Shown here: positions 18,875 to 52,359 of the stretch, piece after piece
Layout: each line of letters starts with the position of its first letter
Position numbering within the stretch: position 1 is the first letter of the stretch
Source of the DNA: Styela clava
Lineage: Eukaryota
NCBI RefSeq assembly: GCF_964204865.1
Contig: NC_135251.1
Location: 10,044,001 to 10,108,000 of the forward strand
Direction of reading: 5' to 3'
DNA: 64,000 nucleotides
The notes under the pieces: generated by a model
Databases searched by the model: none
The model's input: only the letters and a program-made list of their open reading frames with translations
What the model was told of the DNA's origin: nothing
Program-made: the position numbers and the translations under genes

Positions 18875-19433
18875 ACCTCAGTAAATAATACTATTATGAT
18901 AAATATATGACTACAAATGAAGTACAATCTTATTATCAATATATAGGTATTTTGAATGTGTACAAAGTATTAGTAAAATGTTAATTGAAAAAATTGAAAA
19001 TGTGAAAATATTCGTGTTCAAAATATTCACAAATTTTAACTTTATTTTTTTCAATCAGATGCCACATTTTCGCAAAATTTCGGAAGAATTACTGAGGGTG
19101 AGGTATGGTTAAAATTATTAACAATTAAATAGACAAAATCTGCAAGTTTATTCAGAGTTGAATTACAGCATGTTTTGAATGAATGTATATCTACATACAA
19201 ATATATTTTTTTGTGTGGTTCACTTTGTTTTTAAAAAGTATTGAAAGCAAATATTTAAGAAAAATTAATAAATTGGAATATTTAAAGTTATTTCTTGATA
19301 CTTTTTAAATATTTGACTTTTAGATATTAAAGCCAACCGCATGTTGGACTACAATGCTAGGAAGGCACAAAGCGGAATTGATGCGTATTACTCTAATCCT
19401 CTAGTCACAGGCACAAGTCACAGGTTTCATTGA
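18875..19433 (+). pseudogene. Family paralogue G (exons 3-5 only; in-frame stop)
   Basis: Phase-1 exons: 18875-18946 (xLSK*YYYDKYMTTNEVQSYYQYI), 19059-19097 (DATFSQNFGRITE), 19324-19433 (DIKANRMLDYNARKAQSGIDAYYSNPLVTGTSHRFH*). The exon-5 NR-x5-A-x3-Q motif matches the family. Exons 1-2 were not identified. Confidence 0.7.
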
Positions 19434-21112
19434 TGTCTATTTTGGATAGTATCCATGTTTCCGAATTTTCAGATTTACTTTTCATATAATGTTTTTTGAT
19501 TAGATATTTACAATATGATGAGAAACAGAAAAAAATACACTGTTTTTTACCAAATGCATTGGAAAGTTGAATTGTGAGATCAGCATATCATACTTGCACT
19601 TTTCAATTTCATTTCAGTTTTATTTCTAAGTTATTTTTTACTTTGAAAGCCGTTGAAATTTCCGAATTCATTTTTCTGAAGATGGGGAGTTATCAGCCTG
19701 CTATATATTTATTGCCTATTGCCCTTTTTCATAAGGAGGTCATCTAAAAAAGATTGTGCGAAAAAACTCCGAAAATACGCAGACCTATTTATGGACAAAG
19801 GAAACAGTTAAATATATTCAGAAACAATATAGGATCATATTGGCGATTAGGTATATTTATTGACAGTGCGAGTCAACGCTATCAAGAATACAACAATATA
19901 TCAATATAAGGCGGTATATTTTACAAACTGGTTTGAATGTCTGAAATATTTGAGAGATAATTTAACGAGACAGACATTTACTACAGTCGCACCCTTATGC
20001 ATTAACACACTCAGACGCACTTTTATGCAATAACACACTCCATGAAAAATTGATTTTTTTCATCTATTTCACATGTAGTATGATGTAGAGAACAAAAAAT
20101 AACATGAAATCTGGAATTGTTTTCTGAAGTGAAAACATTAGGAACGTTTTCACACTGCTTGCATGAGCAACATGTACATAGTATTCAACAGATTGAAATA
20201 ACGAGAATATCACATGAACGAGTTAGCAGCAATCGTAGACCGCCCACTTATCGATCTAGCGGCGTGTATCCTTCGCTCTGACTTAATAGCGACACGGAAT
20301 AATACACATCCCAAGCGAGAAACGAACAATTCATTTTCAAATATTTAGGTCGATCTTATATTATATCATTGATTAATATTAATTATTAGTGTTTATTAGA
20401 AATATAAAAATGAGAATAAAATTTACTTTATAAATTTACGAGCCGAAGATATACAGGGTATTTTGCTTATTATAATTTCGTTAGAAATGACTATTCAAGT
20501 TTTAGAAACTTATGTCTGATGTCCTTCATCGAAAACATTTGTTGGTTCAAGAAGTGTTGTACCACTGATTTGTATTATTCAAACCAAAATTGCTGGAGGA
20601 AGAAAAAACAATTTCGAGACCTCACTCTTTAATTTTAGTCCGACCATGTAGATACGCATATATTAAGCAACATACATAAAAAGGGTAGCGCTTTATTATT
20701 ATTTAGAAATTGGATTCTTTTATTTGAATTATAATAATTCGAGAACTCACTCTTTAATATTTCTTGGCTCGACTACCTAGATACGCATAAATAAAGCAAC
20801 CTAAAAGTGATTTGTTGATTGAAGAAAAAAGTTATGAACCAGTAACATTGAAAAATGTTACGCTGCAAAAACCTCAGTGTCAAAAATTATTGAAAAATGG
20901 TTAAGCAGGAAGGGTATTTGTCCATATTTAATAGTTGAGAACCACATATTTCGTACGCACAAGAGATGAAAAGTATTGACTAATATACAGTTTAATTTTT
21001 ATTGTTACTAACTGTGACAATTTAGTCGTGTTCTCAGCGTTTATCACACATATTTATGATATTTATTTCTGCTTACAATTAAATGATGTCGTGAAATTTA
21101 CAACTTATTTCA

Positions 21113-21160
21113 GATAATCGGAAAAACGTATAACGAACTATTTCCTTATTGCGTCATTAA
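21113..21160 (+). promoter_or_regulatory. Conserved proximal promoter module of the five-exon family (copy upstream of gene A)
   Basis: ATCGGAAAAACGTA...ATTTCC...TGCGTCA. Equivalents at ~24232 (B), ~27950 (C) and ~35692 minus (D). CGGAAA.ACG also at ~49389 (E) and ~52469 (F), minus strand. Always 96-110 bp before the ATG. Confidence 0.65.
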
Positions 21161-21225
21161 CTGAAAGTAAACAGATATTCAGGAGTTAACCAGCTTTACT
21201 TCGATATGTAACTTCGTATCACAAT

Positions 21226-22748
21226 ATGCTTAAATTTTTGTTTGTTATGATAGTATGTCAAGCTTACTCTTGTACAAGTTTGAGAGCACCTTCGATTTTA
21301 TGTGAGTACACAATCCAAATTATTTAAAAAAAATGTGTCGAATCGTCGAATTATATTTATATTCATATTTAGTGCGCTGTGAATTCCAATATATGTTTTC
21401 AATTACAATCGACCATTCGAGTTTATGAGCTTTTATATGCCAATAAACCCACGTTAGTTCCCGAATAATCTTCAAAAGATTTGATAAGAGAGAATTGTTT
21501 TTAATTTGCAGTTCAACCTTTTTATTAAAATTTTATATATTCTAGAATTAGCGTTTAGTGTTGTTTAACTTTTTTATTTGTGTATTTTCAGCAATAGACG
21601 CGGATGGAAATAGTTATTTCAATGTAATAAATAACTGGCATGGAAGTTCTTCATGTGAGTAAAATGATGGATGTAGAAAGGATTGCGTCTTTTAATGAAA
21701 GAATTAAACCACTTACTAAAATGAAATACTTTTTAAGGACGTTTGGTATATTGGTGGCAGTATATTTAAAATCTCTAATATAATATATTTTGTAAACCAA
21801 ATTACTAATCAGATTTTATTTTTTATTGAAATGATAAATATGTTATTTTTTCTGAAATTTGAAATGTTTTTAGCCAGTTGAAATTTATCATTTTTTAGTT
21901 CTGGCTGACCGAACAACTCATCCTGAAATGATTGGTTCATATGTATTTAACCTAGGATTTGTAAATGGTGAGCTTTATTCCAACTTATAGGTAAATACGC
22001 ATTATAGATGATGATTTGCTGATTACTTTGAATATTTACTACATTGCCTCACTTGTATTACTTTGAAGTTCATGACAATTTAAGTTACGACGAATAATAT
22101 GTAACGACAATGCATTATGGCATATAGCCTATGTCAAAACATTGAAAGTTTGTTCAAATCAAAAAATATAATAAAAGCAGTATCATTTTGCTAATTTGGT
22201 TTAATTGATATTTTATTCGAGCATGGCAACATATATTCTTAGCATGAATTTGGAATCAAAATATTTGTTTTCAGACGCATCTCTAACCTTCAATGATGAT
22301 TTATCTAATCAAATTAAAGGTATTGCATGAAAATATAAATTAATTGGAAGAGCGGAGTCGTAATTTTTTAGCAAATTTTGAATGGGGTCGAAGATGGCTG
22401 CTATATATTTATACGACACTACGAATAAAACATGCTTATATTCGCTTCTTAATTTTCATATCTGATTTATCATTCCCATCAATGTTACATCCTGCCCGAC
22501 TGCCAAAATAGCCCAATTAGCTTATTCAATTCTTGCAACAAAATGAAGTCATCTTTAACTCAAAAAAAAAAGTTGCAAGCACTGTTACAGAATAATGGTG
22601 AACAAATAATAATAATAAAATATATGTAGTTTACTAAAACAATAAAACAACCTTTTTAGTGGCACAAGTCAATCGTGATGCTGGAATCAGAGCAATGCAA
22701 CTGCAACATGATTTTGATTGGGATAATTTTTTCGATTCACGATCATGA
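21226..22748 (+). CDS. Family paralogue A: intact 113-aa secreted protein, unknown family
   Basis: Exons 21226-21301, 21592-21654, 21899-21967, 22275-22319, 22660-22748; all GT-AG, phase 1. MLKFLFVMIVCQAYSCTSLRAPSIL-SIDADGNSYFNVINNWHGSSS-FLADRTTHPEMIGSYVFNLGFVN-DASLTFNDDLSNQIK-VAQVNRDAGIRAMQLQHDFDWDNFFDSRS*. Confidence 0.9.
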
Positions 22749-23399
22749 TGTAACTTCCACTATTACTGTAGAAAAACAATATTTATTTAATTTTAAACAT
22801 TCATTATATAAACGTTTTTCGTTCTCTAAAGCAAAATGAAATGTAAAACAATCGGGCTTTTTGTATTATGGATATTGTATTATATACGTATTAGTCGAAA
22901 TATCAATTAAGATTTAGCAATGCAAATCAATCAACAAAGATCAGTCATTTTTTTTTCTTTCGATGCTTTTCGATATTGGTGTAGCACATTAATATCTCGA
23001 ACCCAAACATGATGTCCAATATTTTCCTCAGTTAAACCTTTGGTAGGTTTTTCTCATATTCTGAATATGTTTTCAGCTTTATTCACATTGAACAAGTTTA
23101 TGTTTGAAACTTTAGTAAAACAAATTGATAAGCCAAAAGCACGAATAGGAGTGTAAATTAATTTGCCCCAATGAAAAAAAAATAAAAAGTATTGGCGTAG
23201 AAACTAATATAACCTTCAATTTTATTTAGAAACATGAGTTACAGTCTATATTTAAAAAAAAAAAAAAAAAGGAACCGCCGTTGTAGGCAGGGCTCTGTAA
23301 AAGGCAGTACAATCAAATTCTACTTTGCAAATCAGTAGCATAATTCTGTGTAAATACTGCAAAAATTGAATTACTAACTTATTAGCCAATCAGTTGTTA

Positions 23400-24170
23400 C
23401 TATAATGAAGGATTCTTTTTTGCTTTCCTCATCACGAGTCGTTGTTTTATTCATTATGATCTTATCAGTGTTTTGCAGATGTTGCCAGATTCGTTACCCA
23501 ATAAATCATGTGAGCGATGTTGAACAAAGCTTCAGCTACTACAGTGATTAAAGATTAGTCAAAATACTTTTCTGGTTGTCTTTGACATACGACGGTATTA
23601 CTTTCTTGCACATAAGGTCGGTTAACTATATATGTCGAAAGTTTTTCTGTTGCGGTTCCATTTGCTGATATGATTGGGCGACAAGGATAATTTTCCTTAT
23701 TGACTTTTAGCTGTGAGCGTAGACGGCCTGGTTTGGGATTTTTCGGAATCATCGCTTCGAACAGTCTATTATCTATTACGCCGGCTTCTTTCATATTATG
23801 ACATAATTTGGTCACATTATTTCCAATTTGTCTAGAGATGTCTTTAAGATTGTATTCGTACACCAGACTAACAGCTAGATGCCGCATGCCTTCAGTGATA
23901 TAATATGATCGAGAAAGAATGCACGTACCCCCACCTTTGTCAGCAGGTACGGTCACAATATATCTTGCTTTTTTTTATTCGAGCTTTTTCAAAGCGTGGA
24001 ATTTGTCTTTTTTGAGATTTGAGAACGTGCGTATTTATGATGCTCCTTTGTTAGTTTCTCGTTTAGGGTGTTGGCATAGTCATTCATATCTGAATTTCGT
24101 CCCCGAGGGAGGTTTCCATAGAAGTCTGACCTCGGTCAGACGAAACGTTACAGAAATACTTTTGTGTTAG
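23400..24170 (-). mobile_element. Penelope-like retroelement reverse-transcriptase relic
   Basis: ORF 23555-23956 contains PADKGGG..I and LKVNK..YPCRPIISANG..TEKLS. These match the ADKG and PK(I/V)HK..RPII(S) motifs of PLE RTs. Stops and frameshifts occur on both sides. Confidence 0.85.
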
Positions 24171-24340
24171 TGTGCAGCAAGACTAATGAATTGAATAGAA
24201 TACGTGTTTACAAAGATGCTATTTTCCGATTATCGGAAAGACGTACAATAAATAATTTCCTCTGTGCGTCAACAACTGGATGTAGAACTGCTCATATTCA
24301 GGAGCTAATTAGCTTTACTTGGCAAGCTTCGTATAACAAT

Positions 24341-26675
24341 ATGCTGAGATATTTATTTGTTATGATATTATGTCAAACTTGTTCTTGTACAAATGGAAGA
24401 GAGTTATTGATTGAAGGTGAGTGCAAATCAATATTTTCAATTTCAATCAACTACAAAGAATGGGGCATTTTTTTAATTATTTCGTCTATGTTGAATACTA
24501 CTCCGCAAAAAAATAAATTCGATCCTTCCTAGTATAAACAATATGATATAACGGAACAATCATAAAACGAGAATATCGGTCAGAGACCGAAGACTTATCG
24601 ATCGAAAGTTAGGGGATCCCCCCAAAACAGCGCTTTTACTCCATAGTGATACCTTGTGTCCAATCACTAATTAATTACTAACTCGCTAATTATACGACAT
24701 AACACATCCAAAATCAATAGGCTTCTGGTACGACATATGATGAATGCACATGCAAAATCTGGAGCAGATTCAATCTCGTTTTCGTGAGATATCGCGTGCA
24801 TCTAACAGACAGACAGACAAAAAGACAGACAAACACCTATCAACATACTTACCGATTAAAATCGATACGTAATACCGTTGGAGTTAGAAAATTTAATCTG
24901 TATTGCTAAACTACACAATATATCATGTGAAAAAAATTAATCAAAATCAATCAATTAATCAGATTCTGTGCGTTATGACTCTAGCTGCTAGACGGTAAAA
25001 GTAATAAGTAATAAATAGTAATAGGTAAGTAATTTTCATAAATGTAACTCATTTGTGTTATGGGTCGCGACCGTAAAAAGTCATGATCAATCATTTTTCA
25101 AAGTATCTATAGAATATGAAGAATAAAAGGGATATTTAATAAAATTTATATACACTTTATAATAGTACTATTATTGTGGTAGAACTGTATTCATTTTCAA
25201 TTCTGACATTCCTCTACGCGTCAACGACAGGATGTAGAATTGCTGCTATTAAGAAGCTAACTAGCTATACTTTGCCTGCTTGATATCACAATATGCTTAA
25301 ATATTGTTTTATTGGGATAGTCTGTCTAGTTCGCTTTTGTGGAAGTGTAAAAGAGGTTGTAAGTTGATCAATATCATTTGAAGGAATGTTGTAAATTGAT
25401 TTTTTTCAATATTATTTTAATTGAGTTTTTTATTCTAACATTCAAAATAATTTGTTTATAAATAGCTGAAACAAATAGGAATATAACGAATAAAATAGGA
25501 AGTGAAAATGATTTATTTATAAAAAAAAAATCTTGTCTGACCAAACTACTGTCGTAGTACGCAATTGTGTCTACAAAATCTAATTTGTATTTTAACTTAA
25601 ATATTCAAATTTTGTATATATTAGAATTAGCATTTGTTCCTATTTATTTTTCAATGACTTTTTTGAATTCATAATATTTTCAGCAATGAAAGAGGATGGA
25701 ACTATTGATTTCAATACAATAAGTACTTGGTATAAATCTTATGAAAGTTTTTCTGGTGAGTAAAATCTAATTTATAGGTATGGAATGTGTTTTCAAGGCA
25801 TAAATCGAATCAATTGGTAAAAGTCTTTTGTTAGTTTAACGTTCACAATTCATAATTTTTCAGGGCCGACTGATGGTACAACAGCTCCTGCAATGATTGG
25901 CTCATACGTAATCAACCTGGGATTTGTAAGCGGTAAGCAAAATTTTTAACTTATAAACCTACAGACTTTTCTATAGTAAACAAACCTCATGAAAAAGGTT
26001 TTGTTTTATATATATTGTTGTCGTAAATAATGCTCTCACTATGGGTTTATGATTTAGTAAAGACGAATGGCGAAAGTTAAATTTTTATTCGCCGTATTGG
26101 ATATGTGTCAAAAAATACAACGTTTCAACTTGGTGCATGGGACATAAACAATGTCGCTTGAAGAATTTTCAGTAATTAATGTTCAATTTCATTTTCAGGT
26201 GCATCTCTAACATTCTGCGATGGATTAAATAACCAAATTTTGGGTAAAGCATAACTATATATACATATATAAGGGGTGACAGGGTCTTAATTGTTTCTCC
26301 ATGTTTCAGCAGAGCATAACTTGTGGCCGTTACGTTTTTTAAATTAGAGAGACTGAGTAAAATATTTGTCTACCTTTGTTACAGAAATTCTTCCTGTTTC
26401 CTTTTTAATTTTCTTATTTTACAGTTCGTTATAAAATGCCAAAATGGTTCAATTCGCTTCTAAAAACTGCACTATAAGAAAGTGACCATCAATATGAATA
26501 AGATCACGAGAACGATTGAAACTATATTTAACTGTCATACCAAAAATGAAAAAAAAAAGATAATGAAAGCACGTTTGTGACTAAAAGCCATAAAATAACT
26601 TTTTCAGTTGCACAAGCCAATCGTGAAGCTGAAGTCGAAGCAATGCAACAGCAACTTGACGCAATCATGTTTTGA
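24341..26675 (+). CDS. Family paralogue B: intact 109-aa secreted protein
   Basis: Exons 24341-24416, 25684-25755, 25864-25932, 26199-26243, 26608-26675; all phase 1. MLRYLFVMILCQTCSCTNGRELLIE-AMKEDGTIDFNTISTWYKSYESFS-GPTDGTTAPAMIGSYVINLGFVS-GASLTFCDGLNNQIL-VAQANREAEVEAMQQQLDAIMF*. Which first exon is used (24341 or 25293) is inferred from phase. Confidence 0.8.
24566..24874 (-). mobile_element. HINE / DINE-1-like non-autonomous Helentron, full length
   Basis: Reverse complement of 31920-32228. Has subTIRs, a (CAGA)n microsatellite and a terminal hairpin TCGGTC-AGA-GACCGA. Confidence 0.85.
25215..25364 (+). pseudogene. Duplicated 5' region and first exon (B') inside intron 1 of B; out of phase
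   Basis: GCGTCA...ATCACAAT-ATG (25293) MLKYCFIGIVCLVRFCGSVKEV|GTAAGT. It has 22 codons and a phase-0 donor, versus 25 codons +1 nt in A-D, so it is frameshifted relative to exon 2. Confidence 0.7.
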
Positions 26676-28050: not shown

Positions 28051-30098
28051 ATGTAGATATTTTTATGGCTATTGTGTATTTGTCAAGGTGACATTTGTGC
28101 TAAAGTAGGATCATTATCTCTGGAAAGTGAGTGATGTTTGTTAATTACAGTAGATAAAACAAAACCAATGCTAATTTTTATTTAATATATCAATACTTCA
28201 TGTAAAAGAAACTTTAGTAAGCCGCAGTCGCGTCCGGATCATTTCTGAATTTTCTAGTTCAATATTTTGAAATCGATCAAATTCAGAGATACTTTATGAA
28301 ATTTGTTTCTACTAGCTTATAACCACTCAGTTTTAAATCTCAGTTTTTGCACAGCATTTTCCGAATTTCCGGTAAATCCAGTATTTTTTGGCGATAGTAT
28401 TTGTTTTTCAATAATTAATTTATGATACATATATATTTATTTAATTATATTTGTAGTTACGGATTTGGACGCCCCCCTTTTGCTCGAAAATAATGGAGTT
28501 GGTAAGATTCTAGTTTATATAGAAGCAAATTGCAAATAAGACTAATTGTATTCAGGCGATTACTAACACAATACCGATGCTTCACTAGCTATACATGACA
28601 CTTTTTTTATAGTTATATAATAGTAGAACTATATATATTGATATTATTAAAGAATATTATATTTCGCATAAAATTGAGCATGCTTTCCGCTTGCGATGGC
28701 AAATTAAGTCTTAAGTTTCACAACCGAAACATCCGTCATTTTGTACGCATAAGAAATCAAGTTTCAATTGGTATTGAACAACTTATGAGCCACTTTGCCA
28801 AGTTCGTGTTGTGTTGCTGTTGATTTGAATTTTCTCTGTGAAACGAGGTGTGGTCATGGAGATGAACCTCAATAATCCGCCCATAATTTATAGCTATTCC
28901 GTCACCACCTGATTTTATTTCAAATCACTGTGAAAACATTCGACTGGCGTGACTTGTAGTTTTAATATTTCACACTTAGTCAGGTTTATTGATGAAATAA
29001 TGGATCATTACTTTTATATTGCACTATTTTATTTAAAACTTTTATCTCAGTTTTTCAAATAAGATAGATATTTACCGTTTTTCGTAACAAATCATAATAT
29101 TTAAATTTGTATTACTGAAAACTGGACTTGATTAAATCGTACGCTATCTCGTATTCAAAAATTTTCACATGTTTAGTTTGTTATTTAACCGCAAAGTATG
29201 AAAGTGCCGATTATCATTTTGTATTTTATTTTTTTAGTCCACGTCATAGATTTTTTAACATCTTCTGGTACAACGACTGGTTTATATGCATTCAATAAAG
29301 AAGTTTATGGTAAGAAATGTAATATAGGTATTTGCATAATATTTATATATTTGCTTATATTGTATCATAGACATATGCCCAATGTTACAACTACTGACAT
29401 TTTCAATATTTATTAGGGCTGCAACAGATATAAAATAACATTACTTTTGTTCGATCTGCTAGACTCAACAGAATTTGAACAATAAAATGTTGAGCAGAAT
29501 CCAAATTGAATAAATATAATATACGCGTATATTTTACGTTGGTTTTATCTATTTCAATGTTGGAACTGTAAATGTAATCCCAAATTTTAGTTAGCCAAGC
29601 CAAATCAAAACGCTTCAGGTGTTCAATGTAGATTGCGATTTTTTGCTGTGCATCAAAATATGCATGATTTAACCTTTTTTTTTATGAAATGCGTTACGAA
29701 GGATTATTAAAAATTCACTTTATGTTTAGACGCGGTAATGACATTTCATCAAAGTTTCGAAACGGTAAGCCAATGTAAGTCAAAAACAGTGAGAAAGACA
29801 ATACTTCAATTCTGGCCATCTATGCATAGGATCATAAGAGTAAATAAAACTGCATTTAGGGTTCTAAAATATATTTATATTACCATCGATCAACGTTCTA
29901 ACGAAATGTATTTTTTTAAGTTTTCTCAAAAATTTTATTCCCTGAAAATATCTGAAAATCATTTCGAATTGAAACTGGCTAATTTTATTCTTAGTAATTC
30001 GAATCAACCGCGGTATGCACTCCGATATCGTGAAGGCAAGAAGAAGCCCTAATGACGGACACACTAAACTTGGCATCAGCACGTTCGCTTATAAATAA
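28051..30098 (+). pseudogene. Family paralogue C: complete five-exon structure but TAG at codon 2
   Basis: Exons 28051-28126 (M*IFLWLLCICQGDICAKVGSLSLE), 28457-28501 (ITDLDAPLLLENNGV), 29238-29309 (VHVIDFLTSSGTTTGLYAFNKEVY), 29730-29774 (DAVMTFHQSFETVSQ), 29995-30098 (LIRINRGMHSDIVKARRSPNDGHTKLGISTFAYK*). All phase 1 and otherwise open. Confidence 0.8.
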
Positions 30099-31680: not shown

Positions 31681-32474
31681 CTATGTCGGTAGAGTAGTGA
31701 CGTAATGATGACGTAATGACAAAATGATCAAATGTAATAAAATTTTTAATGGAGCAACTATCCGTTCTCGAAGTGGTAGAGATGGACTTGCTTATAAAAG
31801 TAAAGGAATTTGAAATGAATCTTTTTAAGAAATTAAGCTTAGTGGTGAATATATTTCTGATTCAAACGTTAATTGTTAATAATAACATATTGAACGAAGT
31901 CCGCAAAGTGGACCTATGTTATTACTTATCAATTTTAATCGGTAAGTATGTTGATGGGTATTTGTCTGTCTATCTGTGTGTAGGTCTGTTAGATGCACGC
32001 GATATCTCACTAAAGCGAGATTGAATCTGCTCCTGATTTTGCATGTGCATTCATCATATCTCGGACCAGAAGCCTATTGATTTTGGGCGATCTATGTCGT
32101 CTAATTAGTGAGTTATTAATTAGTTATAGTGATGGGACGCAAGGTGTCACTATGAAGAAAGAGCGCTGTTATGGGGATCTCTTAACTTTCGATCGATAAG
32201 TCTTCGGTCTCTGACCGATATTCTCGTTATCATGGTGTCGTTGTTCGTGTTAGAAATTTTCTTCGCCAAGGGGCTATTACTTTTTTTCAACGTGAGTTAC
32301 ATGCTGCCATAAATATAGGCAATCGAAATGACTTTCGATAGAAGGAACAATGGTTATAGTAGAATTTGAAAGATTTGTTGCATAATAATATAAATTTACC
32401 TTTATCTAGGAGACACTGTCTCAAAGTTTGATCGCAGTATTGGGAACCAAGACAGTCGCTGTTAACATCACACA
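31681..32474 (-). CDS. Partial gene: four-Cys module exon plus a putative hydrophobic terminal exon
   Basis: Exon 32474-32400 (75 nt, phase 1-1) encodes xCDVNSDCLGSQYCDQTLRQCLLDK, paralogous to 1550-1479. The candidate next exon 31790-31681 encodes ASPSLPLRERIVAPLKILLHLIILSLRHHYVTTLPT* and is less certain. No convincing first coding exon. Confidence 0.6.
31920..32228 (+). mobile_element. HINE / DINE-1-like non-autonomous Helentron, full length
   Basis: 5' subTIR ACTTATC(A/G)AT followed by its inverted copy ATCGGTAAGT; GTCT microsatellite; 3' subTIR ATCGATAAGT; hairpin TCGGTC-TCT-GACCGA; ends in TT; no TSD. This is the known DINE-1/HINE layout. Confidence 0.85.
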
Positions 32475-34058
32475 CTGTGTAAATGAAAAATTAAAAATGT
32501 AACTTAGACATTCACAACAGTCTGTTAGGATGAATATCGGTCATTCAGATAAGCTATATCTGATTGATATTGAACTAACGCGAAAAAGTCGTCATATGAA
32601 ACCTCCATCGTTCACTTATTGGTATAACAAACGTTTGCAACCCAAATATACCGCGATAGTGTTTAAATGTGGTAAAGTTTAAATTGACATCAATATTTAG
32701 CTGGGACAGTTGTAGTATTCCATTTGATGTCACTTTTACTGACGAAAAATCAAGTTCTTTTCATTCATTTGAGCTTGTTGTAGTGTGGAACTGTGTGTCT
32801 CTATTATCTTAATGGCAAACTCAACAAGGATTTTTAGACCCATCAGACATTTTACCACTCAAAATCTTCAATTACTGGCCACTTGAATTGAATATGCTTC
32901 AAAGCAAACTAAACCTATTTTCACAAAATCAAAATTTACAACGAATTAAGGTGATTTTCTCACTCTATCTGCCAAAGGCTAACAGGAAATCTAGGTATAA
33001 AACTGGGAATTTTATTTTTTTGGTACACAGTCCATGCACCGCAAATGTTCTTTAACCTATAGTACTCAAACTTGACATATTGTGGTGCGAAGTTTATAAA
33101 AAAAGGGGGTCCAGGGGAAGTAAGGTCTATGTACATAAGGACCGACTTTCGCTGCATTTATAACCGGTATCAGCTTATGATCAGCATATCTATAATAAAC
33201 AAGTGAACCTGAGATTTATATTCTTTTATTAAATACAGCAAATAAACTTCGTCTCCCACAGGGCTCCGAGATCTTTGAATTTTGTCAGGTTACCTTCAAT
33301 CATTTGCGACTATTTAGCTTAGTTAGTAACTTAAACGAGATGAACTCTATGAGAAATAGTCTTGCCCAATCACTATGACCTATGAAAATAAAACTGGCAT
33401 AAGGTTTTCCAGGTTTTTTCCTCGGATGGTAAGGTCCTTTTTGCATGAGTCGATTGAAGCTTCGCCTACGAATTCGAAATCTTGGCCTTCAAGAATAACC
33501 GTCACTCAAATAAAAAGAGTGTAGCGAGTGAAAAGCAATTTGTTTTCTGTTTTCATATATGGAAGGTTTTAAATGTTTTATTAAAAATCACTATCATTAT
33601 TACTTGTGTAACGAAGCACCACAATATTGGCGAAACACTGATAAAACTATGCATGGAAAAAGCAAGTCATAAGATGGGGAAAGCAGACAGTGACCTATAT
33701 TTTTTGGTTGTACCCTATAAGTTGTAATCTTGGCTTTATGTGACGATCATACCAAATTATATCAAGAATTTACAAAATATAATCTGGTTGCAATATGAAT
33801 GCTGAGCGCTAACTAGACTGTGACAGCTGATAACAAAAATGAAATCCAATACTCTCCATATTCTCATGCTTTTGGTACATATGCTTCTCAACGGTTCAAT
33901 TTGCACAAATAACTTTCCTGCCCTTCCATTTTGAAGCCTCTGATTTTTTTCTATTGAAAGATTTTTTCATACTTTTTCGCGAAACAAATAACTTTTATGT
34001 AATGTACAAATCAAAAGTACGTAAATATTACTCTTCTTCAGTCATGTTGGAAGTTACA

Positions 34059-34163
34059 TCATGATCGTAGAGGGAGCAAATAAAGTTTCAATGAGAGTAG
34101 GAGTGCGTGAAGTTGCTGTTGCATTGCCTCGATTTAAGTAAGCTTCACGATTGGCTTTTGCCA
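34059..34163 (-). pseudogene. Orphan exon 5 of a deleted family paralogue
   Basis: Minus strand TGGCAAAAGCCAATCGTGAAGCT..GAGGCAATGCAACAGCAACTTCACGCA..TCATGATGTAACTTCC. The acceptor is AC instead of AG, and there is a small frameshifting insertion. Confidence 0.75.
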
Positions 34164-34218: not shown

Positions 34219-34333
34219 TATTACTTATCGATTTTAATCGGTTAAATATGTTGATAGGTATTTTTCTGTCTGTCTGTCTGTCTTCGAGTATGTCTGTTAG
34301 ATGCACGCGATATCTCACGAAAGCGAAATTGAA
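34219..34333 (+). mobile_element. 3'-truncated HINE copy
   Basis: TATTACTTATCGATTTTAATCGG..(GTCT)n..GTTAGATGCACGCGATATCTCACGAAAGCGA. It breaks off directly into the 3' UTR of paralogue D. Confidence 0.85.
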
Positions 34334-34342
34334 GTTACATCA

Positions 34343-35589
34343 TTATAGTGAAGAGATGAAGGCTTCTAATGAAAAACAAGGTGCGTTAAGTGCCTGTTGC
34401 ATTGCCTCGACTTTAGCTGCAAGATTGGCCTGTGCCACTGAAAAAAGTTGTTTTATTGTCTTAGGCGATTGCATACGTACATTTATTATAATTTATTTAC
34501 ATTCTTGATATGGCTATTATAAGGTAGTAATAGTTGGATTCGTGCTCTTTTTCAGTTTGTCATGAACTCTAACTAGATCGTTCAGTTTTTATCGTTATGC
34601 ATTATCTTTATTTTGGATATTTAGACCATCATAGAAGGTTGAAGCAGCACCTGAAAATAAATGATTTTCAATTTCAAAGTGGTAATAATATTAAATGTGA
34701 TTATATCTCAAAAATCTTCTATTCCCCAAATAATACTGTTTATATATTTTGCACCTACTAAATAATACAGAACAAAATTTTGTTATAATATTTAAAATAA
34801 CCAAACACGGATCATTGAATTATTATTTTTTATGAAGTCTGTTTGAGTAAGAAAAGTCTCAACATTTAAGATGTGGTTAGCACTGCCTCACCACCTGCAA
34901 ATCCTAAAGTGATTGTATTTGCAACAACAGTTGTCATATCTTCGGGTTCGAACACTGAAAATAAATATTGCAATTATAAAACTGGCATTAATATTGCAAA
35001 TTTATAATAATAATATTTGATCAATAAAATATGATAACTGACTTGGTCGACACAATATTCCACTATAGTCATAATACCTACACACAATATATATTATTAC
35101 TTGGAGTCTTGTAATATATACGTTTTATCGAAAAGTAAAAATATTCTGCGACGACCATGATTGACCTCAAAAAAACTGTAATTATTATTAAATGTATATT
35201 AGAATAGAAATTAATTTTTGCAATGAAAAATACAATTTAATAGTTTTAATTACATTTTACTGACTAGACATACTTCCATAAGATTCATACGAAGAAACAA
35301 CCAGATTGAAAGAAACAGTCCCGTCATCGTTCATTGCTAAAAATATATTATTCATAAAATTTCGATTCCGGAAATTCAAGATACAAAGAAGAAGCAAGCT
35401 GAGTTAACATTTAAAATTGTAACAAAATGGTTTCAATTTTTGAGTATTAGTATAAATATAGGTAAAATATTACAAAGAAACATCCCTCAAAATAACGTTT
35501 AATGTTTACTTACCTACAACCCATATTGCATTGTTATTTCTACAAGAGCAAGCTTTAGCTAATATCACAATAAACAAATATCTAAGCAT
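34343..35589 (-). pseudogene. Family paralogue D: open exons, but the intron-4 donor is mutated GT>AT
   Basis: Exons 35589-35514 (MLRYLFIVILAKACSCRNNNAIWVV), 35336-35274 (AMNDDGTVSFNLVVSSYESYG), 34954-34892 (MFEPEDMTTVVANTITLGFAG), 34650-34606 (GAASTFYDGLNIQNK), 34437-34343 (VAQANLAAKVEAMQQALNAPCFSLEAFISSL*). The donor reads AAAG|ATAATG, versus AAAG|GTATTG in A. Confidence 0.8.
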
Positions 35590-39997: not shown

Positions 39998-40100
39998 CAT
40001 TGGTTCTCAAAGTGGGCGAAACGGCGCTGAGTACAAATTGGGCAATTGGGGGGCGATGACAATTAAACTGGGCAATTGGGGACTTCGAAAACAAGCCATA
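39998..40100 (+). mobile_element. Left end of a hAT element related to 36445
   Basis: CATTGGTTCTCAAAGTGGGCG...GGGGCGAT resembles CAGTGATTCCCAAAGTGGGCG. The right end was not found. Confidence 0.45.
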
Positions 40101-41444: not shown

Positions 41445-43979
41445 ATGCAATTTTTCAAAGCTATTGTTGTTATCTCTTTCATCTGTAGCTTGTGTGCAGA
41501 GAAAAAATTACCGGGTAAGATTTCTGTAGGATATATTCACTTATTAGATTTCGTAATAACTGTTTGCTGGCAATCTTTGCCTATGTTAATCCCTGGCTTC
41601 TGGTATCAAAAATGCTTAATATAAGACAATTTTGATCTAAAAAATATGACATTAAACCAGTGGCCTGGCCACACCTCGGATTTTGGCGCAGAGTGATCTT
41701 CTTTCATTTATCACTAAAATATTCAGTTTAAATTTTTACAGCTAGAGCCTGCGTTTCCAAGATCGTCAAGGGAAAACTCGTTCAAGTTGGAGATTGTGAG
41801 GTAAAACAAAATTTGATTTTTTTCTTATAACTTTGAGGTATTAATTGTTATTGTGCAACGAACCGAGGCTTGTTTGGTCGGCATTGGCGACCCAGTATTT
41901 ACACTGTTATCTTGGTGAAGGCATTTGGACCCGAAATCTTTATCTTTCGATGCTAAAACTGTTGGCACCATCAGAGCTCTAGCTACCGCCCAAACATTTT
42001 GATCCCAATGAGGATTGGCTGTTCCGACTTCTGCATGTCACACAAATATTATATTCTAAAACAACTTGAATTTTATAATATTTTTATTAATCATCCTAAT
42101 TTTGTATTTATTTTACAGAAAAACGATGGATTTGGTAAGTTCAATCCTTGATTATTTTGGGTTCAAAAATACTTAAATTAATATTTTAGAACCTGAGCGT
42201 CATCTTGGACATGGGTTATAAAAACAGAAATATTTAACCAGTAAAAGTCCGTATTTGCAACTCTTATAAAACAATATTTTGTTTCTCCTTAGTAGAAGAT
42301 ATTTTCAATGGGCAAAGTTATTTGACAGGAAAAAGCTACGGACATTATAATATAACGAAAACTAAATGACTATATGACAAAATTTCAAGATATCTATTTT
42401 CTTCCAGAAATCGCCAGACTCATTAAAAAGAGCCTCGATGAAAAGAAACAAGCCATAAAAAATGCTCAAGGTAATTGATATTGTGTTGTTGCTAACTGGA
42501 ATATAAAATCTGCCACGCCCATCAAAGATTTTCATGGCTCATGGTATTAGATTCAATTTACTGAAGATTTTAAGTATTGGACCCTCGCTGGGTGTAAACT
42601 GGGTGTATGAAGGAAGTCTCACTTAACTAACAGACCGATGAAATTTGAACTTTTAATCCCATATACGTTGAAGTTTTTCTTAACTAAAAGTGTTTCGTTT
42701 TTTGAATTAAAATATTCAACGACCACAATAATGGTTTCAGAGAAATGTGATGTCACATACGATTTCAACTGCTTCCACGTATTCGTGTATAATACAAATA
42801 ACATCACTTTCACCCATTCTAAATCAATTTGCAAATCAATGAACGGCGGAAAACCGTCGAATATTTACGACATCAAGCAATTACAATTCTTGCTCACATA
42901 TCTACGTTCACGTATCCCTGCTGGTGGGTCTTGGATTGGTATTTCGACCGGGATGCAGTATAAGATCAGTTTTATATGTCACAAACTGAAAATTCGAGTA
43001 ATCAGCGGAGTTCGACTCTTTTTTGCAAATTTCACTGGGTCAAAGATTCAAAGGAAATAGTTTTATCATTTCCATCGAATATGTCAGTTACATTAACACT
43101 TCATGCAGACCGACATTCAAATTTGAACAGTCAATTTTAATCCGTTTTTAATTGTTGAAAGCGTGAAAGTACAATTTGTATTTGTATCTTTGTTCCAAAC
43201 ATTCCCGTTTAAAATGTTACAAAATTGAATACGGGCACATTTTCTGTTAATTTTGAGAACTCTAAAGTTTCAATCTCAACAAATTAGAATTGCGAGCTAT
43301 TGAAGAAAGTCTTCATATTTTAAAAAGAATAGGAGAATGATAATAAGATTTTCTGTACTAATTTGTCTACTCAACATGAATTTTTAGTATTCCGGATTTT
43401 TTTTTACATCGTAGAGTTAATGATTTTAAGGAAAGAAATGGTAATTTCAATCATAACTAATATTTTATTCAGTATTATTCGGGCCATTAATCCTCCCCAC
43501 CTTGCAACTAGTATTGTGACTTCACGTTTTGTGGTGTCATGGTGTTTTAAAACAGCCTTGGGATTTTTTAAATTAGTTTTGGGTTTTAATTGTCAACTAA
43601 TATACTTGTGGGATTAGCACAAGCATGTTGCCTGTAACTAATTTTTTTATTTCACCGAAATTTTGGAAATTTGTTCATAAGTTCTTAACGAATTTTAGAG
43701 ATATTAAAATATCTTAAAAATACACCCCATCGTCTAAATTCAGCCCTAATTTGGGCAAAATTGTCGCTACAGAACAATCAGCTTTTGCTTACAAATGGCG
43801 GAGGAATTACTGTTTCCACTGAATCATGGCGGCCTGGTTACCCGGTAGCCAATGCAACATGGTACTTGTCGTACACAAATGTTGTTCTTGCTGTTGCAAA
43901 AGATCCAGATCATAAAGACCAGGGGATATTTAATTATCGACCATCTTTTGAGTTCAACGGAGGCATCTGTGAAATATAG
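41445..43979 (+). CDS. Secreted C-type lectin-domain protein (~212 aa), six exons; intron-5 donor mutated, so possibly a pseudogene
   Basis: Exons 41445-41514 (signal peptide MQFFKAIVVISFICSLCA..), 41742-41800 (ARACVSKIVKGKLVQVGDCE), 42119-42134 (16 nt, KNDGF), 42408-42470 (helical neck), 42741-42964 (CDVTYDFNCF..SKSIC..GGKP..IGISTGMQYK), 43773-43979 (NNQLLL..WRPGYP..QGIFN..GGICEI*). CTLD Cys and W-x-P-G-x-P pattern present. Phases are consistent. Confidence 0.85.
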
Positions 43980-45299: not shown

Positions 45300-45860
45300 A
45301 AAAAATCATGCATAGGTGATGAGAGCACGCGTTGTGATGAAGGAAGCAACAAATACTCTTTATCTGGTTGTATATATGCTTGTTAATCTCATTTCTAAAT
45401 TATGAACTTTCTTAAGTCTTGTAACAGCAGTATCCTGACTGGTGAATCTAGTAGTTTGTTTATTTCTCTGAAGGTTACAAAATATAAATCCGACGTAAAA
45501 TCTCTGTCAGCGGTGAAGCAGAAGTCGCACTGATATAGCAATAAGAAAAATGAAAGATTTTGTCGCAATGATCTTTTCTTGAAAAGTAACTAATACATGA
45601 AAGTAATTGATAATGTTTAATACAGTGATGTGTGTGTTTTCTTTGAAATTACCAAGGCGTTGTTTTGAAGGTGAATAAATTCAATTTTGATTGTTTTATG
45701 TTTTCACTATTTGGAGGAATTTTTATTGCTTTTTCAGAGCTTTTTACATATACTTTTGAAAATGCCATTAGTATGTTTTTGCATTGTTGGCACGTGGAAG
45801 TATTTTGTTTGTTAATTTGTCGATTCAGCACGCGAACCAAAAGAGGTTGCCGACCCCTAC
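45300..45860 (+). mobile_element. hAT relic with decayed transposase C-terminus and right TIR
   Basis: ..LTGESSSLFISLKVTKYKSDVKSLSAVKQKSH* (stop at 45533), the typical Buster-type 'Q.SH*' end. Ends AGAGGTTGCCGACCCCT. Homologous to 9780-10212. Confidence 0.7.
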
Positions 45861-46272: not shown

Positions 46273-49200
46273 TTAAATATAGAATGGATCTGCTACAAAA
46301 TGCACTTGATTTGTTGATGAACCCTGATTTAATCCCTCTGTAACTACTTCATACTGTCTTTTCATGGCATTGATTTGAATTTGGCGATTGATTTGTATTG
46401 CTGAAAAGTAAAAAATAGTTGAGAAAAAGTAAAAATTGAAAATTTCGAGTACAGAAGTTTTAAAAAAGAATATATTTATGAAAAATTCATAAAATGTTTA
46501 AACATGGGAACTGGTCTGTGGAAATGGCTTCTGTTGATAGAGAGTAGAAACAGTCAAATGTTTATCTACATTATTGATGCATAGCAAAAAATCACAGAAT
46601 GTCGAATAACATAAAAATAAATGTCAGTTCTAAAACGATGATTTGATCTATATTCTTATAATTCTTCAGAAGTAATGTATGACATAATAAATCGTATACA
46701 ACTTGAATTTTCAATGCAACCATTCTCTGTTTACAGAAATTTCCGTCTTGTTTCTATACAATTAAATATTTTAACTAAATTCACCTTTAATCTGCATATT
46801 GTATATGCTAACGAATGGTAAATTCGGTCCTGTGAAAGTAAAAATTGGAGTTAGATTTCGGATTCAATGACATTGAGAGTCTCCCATCTCATATAAAAAT
46901 TCACACTTTTGTCCTCATATTTTTTGCATATTGAGAAATATAACAAAAACTAAATTGAAATGATATTGAAACGTCCATCTACTCGAAGAAACCTATTTGC
47001 ACGATAGGTAAGTTTTTCCCTGGAATAATATCGAGGTTATAATATTGGATAAAATTTTGGCAATTACAAATTTATATATTAACTTTAATATTTTATTTGA
47101 TATAGAATTAATAATAACGATATTCTATGCACTTACTTCCATATTATGCTAACTTTTGAGTGTATTTCGCTTTATATTGATATATTTTATAAGTTGACAT
47201 TAAAAAATAATACTGTCAACATACAATTAAATGCAAGTGTCCAAGTGTTTAGAGCAGTGTTTCCCAACCCGAGTCCGCGGTCTCAAAAAAGTCCTCGGAG
47301 CGTTTGAATGAGTCCGCAACGAGCCAGAAATTCACTGCGGGCGCAAACGTTTTTATGAAAGTTAACATCAGCCAAGTTACGATTTACGTTAAAATTCACA
47401 TAAAACATAAAATGCAAGTTTATTCACATAACATTAATCAAGTCAATTATTACTAGTTACTGAGTATGACTGGGCATATATTCGAATATTCAACTATTAG
47501 ATTAGCAATTCACTATTCGAAAATTTGTTACCAGGTGACGCGCGACTGGTCAAAATGATTGGATTTCGCAACTCACTAGCGAATTTCCGACGAAAACACG
47601 AGCAGACGCGTGGTGTTTCTCGCGAGTTCGAACAACGAGAAATAAATTTTTTTTAGTAGGTGTCACTGGTGGCAACCCAAATTTTCTAAATTGAAATGCT
47701 GCAATACGAAATACTAAAAATAAAAGGGAGAACACCATAACTTTTGTTTTGTGATTGTATGCGACCGATTAAAAACGCTTCTTTAGAAATTGCAAATCGC
47801 AAACTTTCGGTGATACTGTAGTAATATGTGCCAGGGCAGTTTCCCTTAGGCATCCACATTGGTACGTGTACAGTACTGGAGCGCCGAAAGTGTTGTACGA
47901 ACAGCTCAGATTTGTTAACTTCACAATAATACGAATCAAAACCAAATATAATCGGGAACTTTACAACGCATTTTGTGTCAATATTTTTACAATATTTTTA
48001 ATAAGTACTAAATCAAGTTGTATTTTCTGGAAATTTATAGCAGATAGGATTTTTCCAACGACGATAACAAATTGGCAAGATCTCCAAAAATATGTATCAA
48101 AATAAATATAATCGTGCAATATGTTAGCAGATTGCATTTTAAAGAAGTAATGCTATCATCTTGTCATAAGTCGACGCAACCGCGAGTTACCATGAACACA
48201 ATTAAAATAGAAAGACATTTTAAATTCTCCTCGTTGTCATGGATTGAATATAGTGCGACAGAAAAGGCCATTACAGTATACAATAAAAAAGTCGGCTCTT
48301 TTTAACGGACGCGTAATTGCGTCGAATTTTCGATTTTAAAATTCGTTCAAATTCCGTTGTGTTTGATTTTATTGCCTATTCACACAGAGTACGGTTGCAA
48401 TAAACGCACCTTGAGTCCGCATAGGTTTTTGCCGGTGAGAAATTAGTCCGCGACCAAAAATGGTTGGGAAACGCTGGTTTAGAGACAATGACTCGTCACT
48501 CACGAAAGTAGATTCCAGTCGAGACAAAAGTTGACATGATGAATTCGGTAGACACGAGAGATGCCACTACAATTAAATTGGTTTCTGAATGAGATTAAAC
48601 AATAAATTGAGGTTAATGTAACAAAACTGATGCATGGGATGAAAAAGAACTCAAAGTCAGTGTTGAGATATTTCATATTAATCTGTAAATACCCTGGTGA
48701 AATATGAACCTGTGTTTACTTTTTTCAGTCACAATCTGACCAGCGATTCCTTTTGTTGAATATGTTGTAACTATGCTCTGTACAATATGAAAAGGTAAAT
48801 GACTGATATAAGCATATCAGAAATTCAGAATGGAGAATTTATGAAGCACTGATTTATATTTTTAGGTAGTCGCAAACTATCACTTAAGATACTTGACACA
48901 AACCAGAATGAATTGACAAGTCGTTTATGGCTGCCATCAACGTGTAATAATCCTTCGTTTGAGCAGCATACAAAGCTTAATACATAAATATAAAATTGCA
49001 TTTATTTTGAATATAGGTATATAAATAGGTATCAAATAAAATGTAATCACTATATTACCAATAGTTTAGCTTGCCTCAAATTAAAATACTATTCAGAACT
49101 TCGAATGTCTCCCATTAATTTTCTGATCAAGAAGTTTCGGTAGAATGTTGCATATGCTTTTTTTATTTATTATTGATAAAAACTACTTGACTACAAAAAA

Positions 49201-49293
49201 AACATTCTTCAAAGTCTCACCTCCTCCAACCACCAATCCATGAGTTGTTGAATAAACTTGTAGAAAACTCCAAATTAACAGTAATATTATCAT
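46273..49293 (-). CDS. Family paralogue E: intact 132-aa secreted protein
   Basis: Exons 49293-49221, 48975-48904, 48584-48504, 46829-46785, 46400-46273; all phase 1. MIILLLIWSFLQVYSTTHGLVVGG-ALYAAQTKDYYTLMAAINDLSIHS-ETNLIVVASLVSTEFIMSTFVSTGIYF-RPNLPFVSIYNMQIK-AIQINRQIQINAMKRQYEVVTEGLNQGSSTNQVHFVADPFYI*. Confidence 0.85.
47255..48476. mobile_element. 1222-bp non-autonomous hAT element in intron 3 of paralogue E
   Basis: TIRs CAGTGTTTCCCAACC / GGTTGGGAAACGCTG. Perfect TSD GTTTAGAG. Empty site in paralogue F at ~51535-51550. Confidence 0.93.
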
Positions 49294-50601
49294 AATGAAT
49301 GAAAAATATTCTGAAGGCAAGCAGCACAAAATCATCGATTACATATTTCTACCTCGCGTTCGAAGGCAACCCGGATGTGCGTCTTTCCGTACATATTTCC
49401 CAATAGCCTACGTATTTCGAACAATTTTTATTTTAATTTATATGCGTGTGTAATTATTTTTGGTTTTGAACCAAATAATTCTAATTGTTTCAATAATTTT
49501 AATGCATCAACTCGATACTTTGCCATGCAACTGTTAACAGTATGAATAATTACACGGTCCCAGTCGCCATTTGAATGGCCACCACCTTGGAGAAAATATT
49601 TTATATTTTTCTGTTCAGTAGAATTCCCAATAAAAAAAAATCTCGCTCATTACAACGTAGAAAAAAAAAATATTTTTAATATCATTTCAAGGAAATAATG
49701 CATTCTACTCTTTTTTAGTTTATTGACACTCTTTTTCAGATATAGAAAGACGCTAATATGAGTGAAGAAAAAAAAAATTGGAATTTTGGTTAGAAATTGA
49801 TATAGCAATTTGATATAGCAATTATTTTGATTTTTATTGATTTAATCGACTCGATTTTTTATAAATATCCAGATAAAATGCAACTCAAACTAAGTTTTGT
49901 TTCATTTTATTTTTTTTTTGTTCGAATCAAAATTCCAAAAAACTCAACCTCAATCTAAAATTAGAAATCTCAGTTACGAGAGAATAAAGCGCCGACGAGT
50001 GATATGATCAGTTATTTTTCAGATATGTTTGTATTTTCCAGTAGTCTGTATTTCCTATCCTGCATTTCATTCTAGCTTTTCCTTGGGTATAGTAACACAA
50101 TATTATGTTACTGATTTGCAGAGGAGAACCTGATGGCACTATAGTATAAACTGTTTTATGAGGCGGGGACACACATCTGCCGTGATTGCGGTTTATAGTG
50201 GCAGTTGGTAAGAAAAAATAGAGTCAATTGACCTCATCTTTCCCTGCGTTCAGTACATGTAATATAATTTTCGTTTAATAAATTTTAACAAATAAATTTT
50301 TTGCTCAACCTTTGCCCAACTTTTGGTCTTTTTTCAAACCTTCAACGAAAAATGTTCCATTCACAGATAACTGTATTTCGGTTTCAACAATAATAAAAAT
50401 TTCTCGATATGAGAAAAATTGCGAGAATTTAAAAAAAACTTAATTTGAACATTGGTATAGAGATAGATGGAGGAATGTGGTAAAAACACGAAGTCTTTAA
50501 ACTATTGTAGAATACTCTTATTCTTTCTATAGAAATACAAGATAATATAAAAATATTTATTTGTGCAAATATTAAACATAATTAATTATAAAGTTAATCT
50601 G

Positions 50602-52359
50602 CTATAAAAGCACTTGGTTTGTGAATGAACCCTGTTTTAATCCTTCTATAACTACTTCATACTGTCTTTTCATGGCATTCATTTGAATTCGGCGATTTAT
50701 TTGTATTGCTGAAAAGTAACAAATAGGTTAAAAAAATTAACATTGAAAATTTCCGAGCATGCAAGTTTTAAAAAAGAATATATTTACGAAAAATTCATAA
50801 CATTTTTAATCATGGGAACTGGTCGGATGAAATAGTTTATATTGGTAAAAAGTAAAAATAGTCACATATTTTTATACATTGTTGCCTAGCAAGAAAATCT
50901 ATATTTGCAAAATGTAGAATAACATGAAAATAAAAGTCAGTCCTCAAACGATGATTTGATCTATATACTTATAATTCTTCAGTAAAAAAGTTTGAAATAA
51001 TAAATGGTTTCTAGAATTCAAGAACAAGTCTACAGAAATATTCTTCTCATTTAATATACAAATAAATCTTTTAATTTAATTTACCTCCAATCTGTATATT
51101 GTATTGGCTAAGGAACGATATAACCTGATCTGTGAAAGTAAAGAATTGGATTTATTGACATCAAAAGTCTTCCACCCCTTATCGAAAATTCTAACTTTAG
51201 TCTGTTTCATATTTTGTGTATATTGAGAAAAGGAAAAAACTAAGTTAGAACTATATCAAAACGCCTATCTAAGCGAAGAAGTCTATTTGCACAATTGATG
51301 AATTTGTTCCTAGAATAAGACCACAGTTATAATTTTGGATAAAATTTTTGCAATTACAAATTTATATTTTAACTTCTACATTTTAATAGATATAGAATTT
51401 TAATAATAACGATAATGATATATACTTACTTTCATATTATGCTAAATTTTAAATTATGTGAATTATATTGATATGTTTCATAAGGTGACATTAAAGATAA
51501 TATTGTCAACGTACAAATCACTGCAAGTTTCTGAGTGTATATAGGCAATGGTTCGTCACTCACCAAAATAGATACTAGATGAGACAAAAGCTGGTATGAT
51601 TACATTTGTAGACTCAAAACCTGCCACTCCAATCAAACTAGCTTCTGAAAGAGATGAAATAAAACATTGAAGTTAATGTAAAAAATTTAATGCATAGGAT
51701 AAAAACGAAACACTTAAAGTCAATATGGAAACATTTCAAATTTATCTGTAAACAAGCCGTGAAATATAAATCTATATATAAATTTGTTTATTTCTTTCAG
51801 TAGCAGTTTGAACCGTACTTACATTTGTCGCGGTATACAAGTCACATCTAACAAATGAGCATCTTTTATGAATGAATATGCTGTGACCACCCTCCTCACA
51901 ATATAGTAAGTTAACTAAATAATAAGCTTAGTATAGATTTGGAGAATCTATCAAGCACTGATTTGGATTACTGAATAATTCACAACAACATATTATAATA
52001 CAATTCACGAACCATGATAAATTTCCAAGTCGTCCAATGCCGCCATCAACGTGAGTGCACCTCCTGTTACAATGAAGTCTTCATAAATGAATATAAAATA
52101 ATAATCATTTGTTTTTTTAGGTACATGTATTCTCAACTTTTGTTTTTGCAAAGATGTAATTGAAGAAAATAAAAGTATCAAATTATAAATAGTTCAGATT
52201 GTATGAATTTTTTTAGAATCCTGATAAAATCTTTCAAAAATATGATTACAATTTATCTCATTGAGAATATGTCTTACCCGTCTTACCTACTGCAGACACC
52301 GACCCATGAGTGGTTGAATAAACTTGTAGAAGGCTCCAAATTAACAATAATATTATCAT
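50602..52359 (-). CDS. Family paralogue F: 123-aa secreted protein (tandem duplicate of E)
   Basis: Exons 52359-52287, 52078-52013, 51644-51564, 51129-51085, 50708-50602; all phase 1. MIILLLIWSLLQVYSTTHGSVSAV-DFIVTGGALTLMAALDDLEIYH-EASLIGVAGFESTNVIIPAFVSSSIYF-DQVISFLSQYNIQIG-AIQINRRIQMNAMKRQYEVVIEGLKQGSFTNQVLL*. The exon-2 acceptor could instead be 15 nt downstream (same frame). Confidence 0.85.

Follow-up and report, generated by a model that had tools for sequence, protein, structure and literature searches.

What do the scattered short exons in a 64,000-nucleotide stretch of the Styela clava genome (G000:C2:10044001-10108000, where C2 is the contig that carries the cluster; we call the whole stretch the window) encode? 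A first-pass annotation, made from the letters alone, grouped them into seven tandem genes (G, A, B, and C on the plus strand; D, E, and F on the minus strand) and two orphan exons, and proposed a hidden family of five-exon secreted proteins. We found that they belong to small Styela genes that form a tandem family, in which some copies are open and others broken. Sequence comparison argues that the family is real, undescribed, and lineage-restricted, and that its products are small proteins of the secreted type. We propose that these products are intact secreted proteins, which are oligomerized by a conserved helix and display a fast-evolving head for extracellular recognition or defense. This is the explanation that we favor, and we hold it at a little under even confidence.

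We confirmed the claimed positions of all seven loci and of both orphan exons, and the claimed strands of the loci. Splice signals and comparison of paralogs give open five-exon genes with GT-AG introns for A (113 amino acids), B (109), E (132), and F (123), and all of the modeled introns are in phase 1. The five-exon layout has an intact frame in these four; D, C, and G are broken. (The frame of D is open, but the donor of its intron 4 is not intact.) A first exon of 73 or 76 nucleotides (nt) that encodes a signal peptide was said to be common to all seven. It is present in A, B, D, E, and F, with a predicted signal peptide (a hydrophobic leader, judged by eye and from composition). It is not established for all seven, because C has a TAG at codon 2 and because comparison of sequences and paralogs found no exons 1–2 for G. 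Similarly, we did not find an exon 2 for C. As described, exon 4 measures 45 nt in all but G (39 nt), and it encodes F-x6-QI in A, B, E, and F. The motif at the start of exon 5 was matched in A, B, E, F, and G, and C retains only its first five residues. The mature regions are nearly free of cysteine (0–1 each). The C-terminal part had been called constant, and this did not hold up: exon 4 is identical at just 6 of 14 residues between E and F, and the tail is variable beyond about 15 codons of exon 5. For exon 2, both E and F offer two candidates; the pair that we chose keeps the frame and differs in length by 6 nt, and the acceptors are weak.

We also examined 100 kb on each side of the window. 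About 16 kb upstream is another open gene, L (98 or 112 amino acids; L020:4066-3125, minus strand), with a 73-nt signal exon, a 45-nt exon, and a last exon in which the family motif is followed by a tail rich in Lys and Arg. (The net charge of exons 4–5 is +22.) Just upstream of the window is H, a C-like pseudogene (L021:7330-8590, plus strand). It has lost its start codon, its donor is broken, its exon 4 is frameshifted, and a GC-rich repeat is inserted behind exon 4. A second copy of around 20 kb of the upstream region lies on another chromosome (G000:C13:2700600-2720400; L097-L099), and decayed copies of L and C are found in this duplicate. So five of the nine copies on C2 are open (A, B, E, F, and L) and four are damaged (D, C, G, and H). 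Because the five open members stand beside D, C, G, H, and the two relics on C13, these data indicate birth-and-death evolution. DNA searches of the genome with B, E, and G returned copies in the cluster only. A genome-wide pattern with CGY had 18 matches, versus 37 for the control; seven are in the cluster and none of the other 11 is convincing. With AGR there were 62 matches, versus 65 for the control, and none of the 30 that we examined has an exon-4-like partner.

The evidence for a single family comes from the segment that spans exons 4 and 5. When the first 30 residues encoded from exon 4 onward were scored, without gaps, against the other subfamilies only, all seven members tested stood out from 20,000 shuffles (z = 3.9–6.6; G was omitted as its exon is shorter). 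Of the 2436 open phase-1 acceptors in 464 kb, seven are followed by the motif for the start of the last exon, and all seven belong to members. Since this motif was derived from the other genes, L is the clean independent test: it was flagged by a scan for a signal exon and a 45-nt exon before its last exon was read, and the motif was then present. Judged from these scores, the subfamilies are homologous across the exon 4/5 junction. Furthermore, Gln is found at position 12 in the five open first exons and in the first exon of C (not in D). Identity between subfamilies over the leader and exons 4–5 is 13–33%. Exons 2–3 vary in length among subfamilies; they are hydrophobic in E, F, and L and Tyr-rich in G, and those of A, B, and D can be aligned (35–68% identity per exon).

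The cluster is only partly hidden. RefSeq has A as LOC120336913 (XP_039260631.1, XP_077966051.1) and has exons of B and C inside LOC120336029 (XP_039259569.1), all described as "uncharacterized protein"; the annotation misses most members. One of these proteins, P0003, has the same five exons as A and is identical at 109 of 113 residues (4 differ). P0001 joins B exons 2–4 to C exons 3–5, and P0002 joins an upstream exon (15238-15367) to A exons 2–5. (P0002 may stem from this assembly, so it is not independent support.) The A junction 21967->22275, with GT-AG, is present in contigs from two of four runs (X1 and X3, from one study; X1–X4 are classed as RNA by an automatic guess, hence "probable RNA"). 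The X1 contig retains flanking intron sequence, so it represents a partly processed molecule. Another X1 contig starts aligning at the last acceptor of G, with 83 upstream letters not placed, which is a hint that G is spliced. For E and F, no contig from the four runs gave coverage, and for B, C, and D, there was no junction among the matches listed (15 of 26); neither result is informative. Low-depth contigs from X1–X4 tile the stretch from G to A (19323-22663), which suggests read-through or unspliced transcription. The first-pass annotation had named two ways to fail, a lack of spliced reads and a match to a characterized family; A has a spliced junction, and no characterized family was matched. 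The exons, in order along the window, are:

15238..15367, plus strand: upstream exon with a phase-1 donor, which P0002 splices onto A exon 2 in place of the signal exon
18875..18946, plus: G exon 3, 72 nt, Tyr-rich, with an in-frame TAA at 18886
19059..19097, plus: G exon 4, 39 nt, Phe-to-Asn spacing retained
19324..19433, plus: G exon 5; one probable-RNA contig begins aligning at its acceptor
21226..21301, plus: A exon 1, 76 nt, predicted signal peptide, the same exon in P0003
21592..21654, plus: A exon 2, 63 nt, predicted beta-hairpin
21899..21967, plus: A exon 3, 69 nt; its junction to exon 4 is in X1 and X3 contigs
22275..22319, plus: A exon 4, 45 nt; the predicted helix begins here
22660..22748, plus: A exon 5 to the stop, with an acidic, aromatic tail
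24341..24416, plus: B exon 1, 76 nt, predicted signal peptide, used in the B model
25293..25358, plus: orphan duplicate of exon 1 near B; its donor is in phase 0, so it is out of frame with B exon 2
25684..25755, plus: B exon 2, 72 nt
25864..25932, plus: B exon 3, 69 nt
26199..26243, plus: B exon 4, 45 nt, joined to C exon 3 in P0001
26608..26675, plus: B exon 5 to the stop
28051..28126, plus: C exon 1, 76 nt, with the TAG at codon 2; located via H
29238..29309, plus: C exon 3, 72 nt
29730..29774, plus: C exon 4, 45 nt
29995..30098, plus: C exon 5 to the stop
34057..34163, minus: orphan duplicate, a second D exon 5, decayed and frameshifted, acceptor lost
34343..34437, minus: D exon 5, with NL in place of NR
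34606..34650, minus: D exon 4, 45 nt; the donor of intron 4 is AT, not GT
34892..34954, minus: D exon 3, 63 nt
35265..35336, minus: D exon 2, 72 nt
35514..35589, minus: D exon 1, 76 nt, predicted signal peptide
46273..46400, minus: E exon 5 to the stop
46785..46829, minus: E exon 4, 45 nt
48504..48584, minus: E exon 3, 81 nt, hydrophobic
48733..48777, minus: E candidate exon 2, 45 nt, alternative or extra
48904..48975, minus: E candidate exon 2 chosen for the model, 72 nt, with a weak AAG acceptor
49221..49293, minus: E exon 1, 73 nt, predicted signal peptide
50602..50708, minus: F exon 5 to the stop
51085..51129, minus: F exon 4, 45 nt
51564..51644, minus: F exon 3, 81 nt
near 51846-51914, minus: F second candidate exon 2, by eye
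52013..52078, minus: F candidate exon 2 chosen for the model, 66 nt
52287..52359, minus: F exon 1, 73 nt, predicted signal peptide

A word index of 5.8 billion proteins returned only three Styela records. (The last exon of L gave three candidates in this index, none of them at E = 10.) A profile scan of 1.84 billion representative proteins had four matches: P0003, P0001, and two bacterial repeat proteins, which we rejected because their scores are sums of 11 and 4 weak stretches. Neither search returned a protein for E, F, G, D, or L. The sequence is short and divergent, so divergent or unannotated orthologs in other ascidians could be missed. Pfam had nothing above the cutoff for seven queries, P0003 had no match among PDB sequences, and the ESM Atlas had no usable match for P0003 or P0001. 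The best profile match in PDB (E = 0.0016) was to a repeated hairpin of beta-propellers and was rejected. With a low-confidence model of A, Foldseek gave 0 matches at E = 0.001, and the best match in the VIA structure search (Z = 4.6) covered the helix only. We also considered an EF-hand in exon 2 and rejected it: by eye, ligand positions 1 and 12 of the consensus are absent. The RefSeq identifiers appear in no main text, and we found no paper on the family. The supplements of PMC10980280, PMC9953650, and PMC11988888 have no "LOC1203" identifier within about 4 million characters, although expression data may exist under other identifiers. One study reports 547 families that are exclusive to Styela clava (PMC7540406).

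If we number from the conserved Asn (position 0), then Phe is at −14, two heptads away, in all eight members, and both lie inside a predicted helix. Positions −10 and −3 are hydrophobic in all eight, Arg is at +1 in seven, Gln is mostly at −7, and five members have Ala-Met at +7/+8. The 6-nt deletion in G is upstream of the Phe and thereby leaves the spacing to Asn unaffected. The conserved positions fit a d-a-d-a-d heptad pattern over two heptads (p = 0.024, with the register chosen post hoc), and the fit is weaker past Asn. For A, AlphaFold predicts a single helix at residues 77–101, with predicted local distance difference test scores (pLDDT) of 59–73 in this block, and strands at 25–27, 33–42, and 58–68, in exons 2–3. 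Three roles had been suggested for the helix: sorting, oligomerization, or a follower signal for a modifying enzyme. The heptad pattern and the predicted helix fit oligomerization best, and we think it likely that the helix across exons 4–5 oligomerizes the products. By analogy, the oligomer is most likely a trimer: Asn at heptad position d is described as typical of trimeric coiled-coil cores (PMC13580157). We propose that the secreted product would stay intact once the leader is removed; that the helix would bundle copies, most likely in threes; and that the oligomer would display its variable N-terminal head for recognition of targets outside the cell. The tail varies (it is acidic in A, all but missing in B, and strongly basic in L) and may tune where each protein sticks; the basic tail of L, for instance, could bind sulfated glycans or membranes.

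The divergence of E and F bears on the fast-evolving head. Exons 1 and 5 together differ at 25 of 200 sites (12.5%; 14% for exon 1 alone), the introns are 20–24% divergent, and exons 2–4 are 27–32% divergent. With the transposon in the third intron of E removed, and across three gap settings, exons 2–4 evolve faster than the introns (Fisher p = 0.005–0.035), while exons 1 and 5 evolve more slowly (p = 0.0002–0.012). This agrees with the layout that had been claimed, a conserved leader and a variable core. It also means that exon 4, apart from its anchor residues, is part of the fast-evolving region. The ratio of nonsynonymous to synonymous substitution rates (dN/dS) is 0.44 for exon 1, 0.51 for exon 5, and 0.96 for exons 2–4, and 0.63–0.89 over whole gene pairs (all from small counts). 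B exons 2–4 differ from P0001 at 6 of 61 residues, which is above the rough neutral expectation of 4% (p = 0.035), although P0001 could be a different paralog. A and C, compared to the older RefSeq proteins, show no excess over neutral (4 of 113 and 2 of 73 residues differ). Overall, the divergence appears to fit diversification, but relaxed constraint would fit too.

Several observations weigh against our proposal. The AlphaFold model of A is of low confidence (mean pLDDT 58; predicted template modeling score, or pTM, 0.32). The heptad register was picked after seeing the Phe and the Asn, so the p value is partly circular; past the Asn, position +4 is polar and the hydrophobic face shifts; and a helix of about 25 residues is short for a stable coiled coil. 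In addition, P0002, which is the RefSeq model now in use, omits the signal exon of A. A core dN/dS near 1, with the overall values above, also fits relaxed constraint. The synonymous sites of the E/F core have diverged too (proportion of synonymous differences 0.35, with small counts), and the E/F test takes in the uncertain exon 2. Finally, a helix that packs on the protein's own sheet would explain the pattern equally well.

This last point leads to the next most credible explanation, which we consider possible though clearly less probable: a monomeric, single-domain secreted protein, with a small sheet and a packed C-terminal helix, that acts (for instance) in signaling, in the matrix, or on the gamete surface. 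The conserved residues would then be its core. The order of strand-strand-strand-helix in the A model is consistent with this, as is the alignment of A, B, and D through exons 2–3. There is also precedent, in gamete-recognition proteins such as abalone lysin, for exons that evolve faster than introns. However, exons 2–3 change length and character between subfamilies while the spacing within the helix is kept, which is hard to reconcile with one compact fold, and models as a monomer have a pTM of just 0.20–0.32.

We also considered that the cluster might be a decaying field of duplicates, with one or two functional genes, the rest dead or dying, and variability that reflects neutral drift. The damage to four of nine copies on C2 and to both copies on C13, the overall dN/dS, and the few differences in A and C, which are near the rough neutral expectation from 1.72% heterozygosity, are all compatible with this. 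Two observations speak against it: E and F exons 1 and 5 are significantly more conserved than their introns, and five copies retain open frames and splice sites at an identity between subfamilies of 18–33% over the leader and exons 4–5. We think that this explanation is unlikely.

The first-pass annotation compared the family to the precursors of conotoxins, clavanins, and styelins, which release a peptide; here the peptide would come from the variable exons 2–3 and the helix would be a sorting or follower signal. A conserved leader with a variable middle suits such a precursor, the core of G is Tyr-rich, and there are dibasic sites within exon 5 of E, F, and L. Styela clava itself is reported to make modified peptides, whose precursors carry anionic prodomains (PMC10608444). 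Nevertheless, the details do not support the analogy. In all six models, the exon 2–3 cores are acidic (net charge −3 to −6) and 40–50 residues long, have no cysteine framework, and have neither a Gly-basic(-basic) amidation signal nor a dibasic site at the core's edges. Dibasic sites are confined to exon 5 of the three genes mentioned, and A, B, and D have none at all. The models contain no repeated core cassettes, and there was no gene for a modifying enzyme among the nearby exons scanned (the scan was not designed to find one). Since exons 2–3 of A, B, and D can be aligned, a folded head suits the data better than a released hypervariable peptide. We judge the precursor explanation to be improbable.

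Because the introns are uniformly in phase 1, joins between exons of different genes preserve the reading frame. Such joins are present in two of the three RefSeq models, and B and D carry duplicated first and last exons, respectively. The cluster could be a combinatorial locus, in which heads, helices, and tails are spliced across genes and the shared helix lets the products co-assemble into mixed trimers. If so, the sister group of vertebrates would have a new secreted family that generates diversity, but this is a long shot. The joins in P0001 and P0002 are likelier to reflect read-through of weakly expressed neighbors or annotation errors than a regulated system.

The cluster is interleaved with other genes of the secreted type, which may mildly favor an extracellular defense or surface role. 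A second family has phase-1 exons of 60–75 nt that encode C-x5-C-x5-C-x4..7-C modules. There are 15 such exons on the stretch of C2 that we examined: three in the window (32400-32474, 1479-1550, and 369-440, minus strand) and twelve more in L017-L021. One gene of this kind has a 76-nt signal exon, and the duplicate on C13 includes another with at least seven modules. (The best Pfam hit for these modules, Dickkopf_N at E = 0.023, is below the cutoff.) At 41445-43979 (plus strand) is a gene of the secreted type whose signal exon is 70 nt; its other exons are short and in phase 1, apart from two larger ones. By eye, the larger two resemble a divergent C-type lectin domain, but neither Pfam nor PDB confirmed this. 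At 12300-16300 are three tandem units that have degenerated but keep conserved donor sites; P0002 takes one of their exons before A exon 2. Three tandem 1.27-kb units, two of them 97% identical, lie at 2051-5859, in front of genes with Cys modules, and have relatives upstream and on C13. High-copy interspersed repeats are found at 24566-24874 (B intron 1), 31920-32228 (between C and D), 34219-34333 (between the two last exons of D), and 47260-48470 (E intron 3). Remnants at 9838-10211 resemble sequence downstream of E (45379-45858) and include no recognizable exon 5.

Invertebrates commonly have tandem families of small secreted proteins that are restricted to one lineage, so the existence of this one is only moderately surprising. 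It is nevertheless an undescribed family that annotation mostly missed, and its signature (a phase-1 exon of 45 nt and Phe-14-Asn-Arg) can be used on other ascidian genomes. If the helix does oligomerize variable heads, then a basal chordate would have a new, minimal way of building a secreted recognition protein that is multivalent, and the family would be a candidate for recognition in immunity, at surfaces, or between gametes.

How does the family compare to known systems? The RefSeq entries LOC120336913 and LOC120336029 are automatic models, with no function or family assigned. Like the products of the clavanin and styelin precursors, the family's products are small, secreted, nearly free of cysteine, and from the same animal. 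Those precursors release amidated helical peptides of 23–32 amino acids that are rich in His or Phe (PMC10608444), whereas the core of this family is acidic, is predicted to be beta in A, and has no amidation or cleavage signals. Clavanin and styelin precursors had no sequence match to the family in our protein searches. In conotoxin precursors, the signal exon is conserved and the variable region diverges faster than the introns. The Styela family shares both of these features, but it lacks a cysteine framework, and its variable part is central and is followed by the conserved helix. If the post hoc register is right, the family would resemble trimeric coiled coils in its hydrophobic residues at a and its Asn at d, with a short helix that might hold up several copies of a head. 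P0001 and P0003 matched no Pfam family at E up to 5 (lectin, collagen, C1q, and fibrinogen domains included), and the family models have no Gly-X-Y run. Collectins and tetranectin, which are secreted recognition proteins that are trimerized via a neck, would be alike in design, except that the Styela head, which has no known fold, is N-terminal to the helix.

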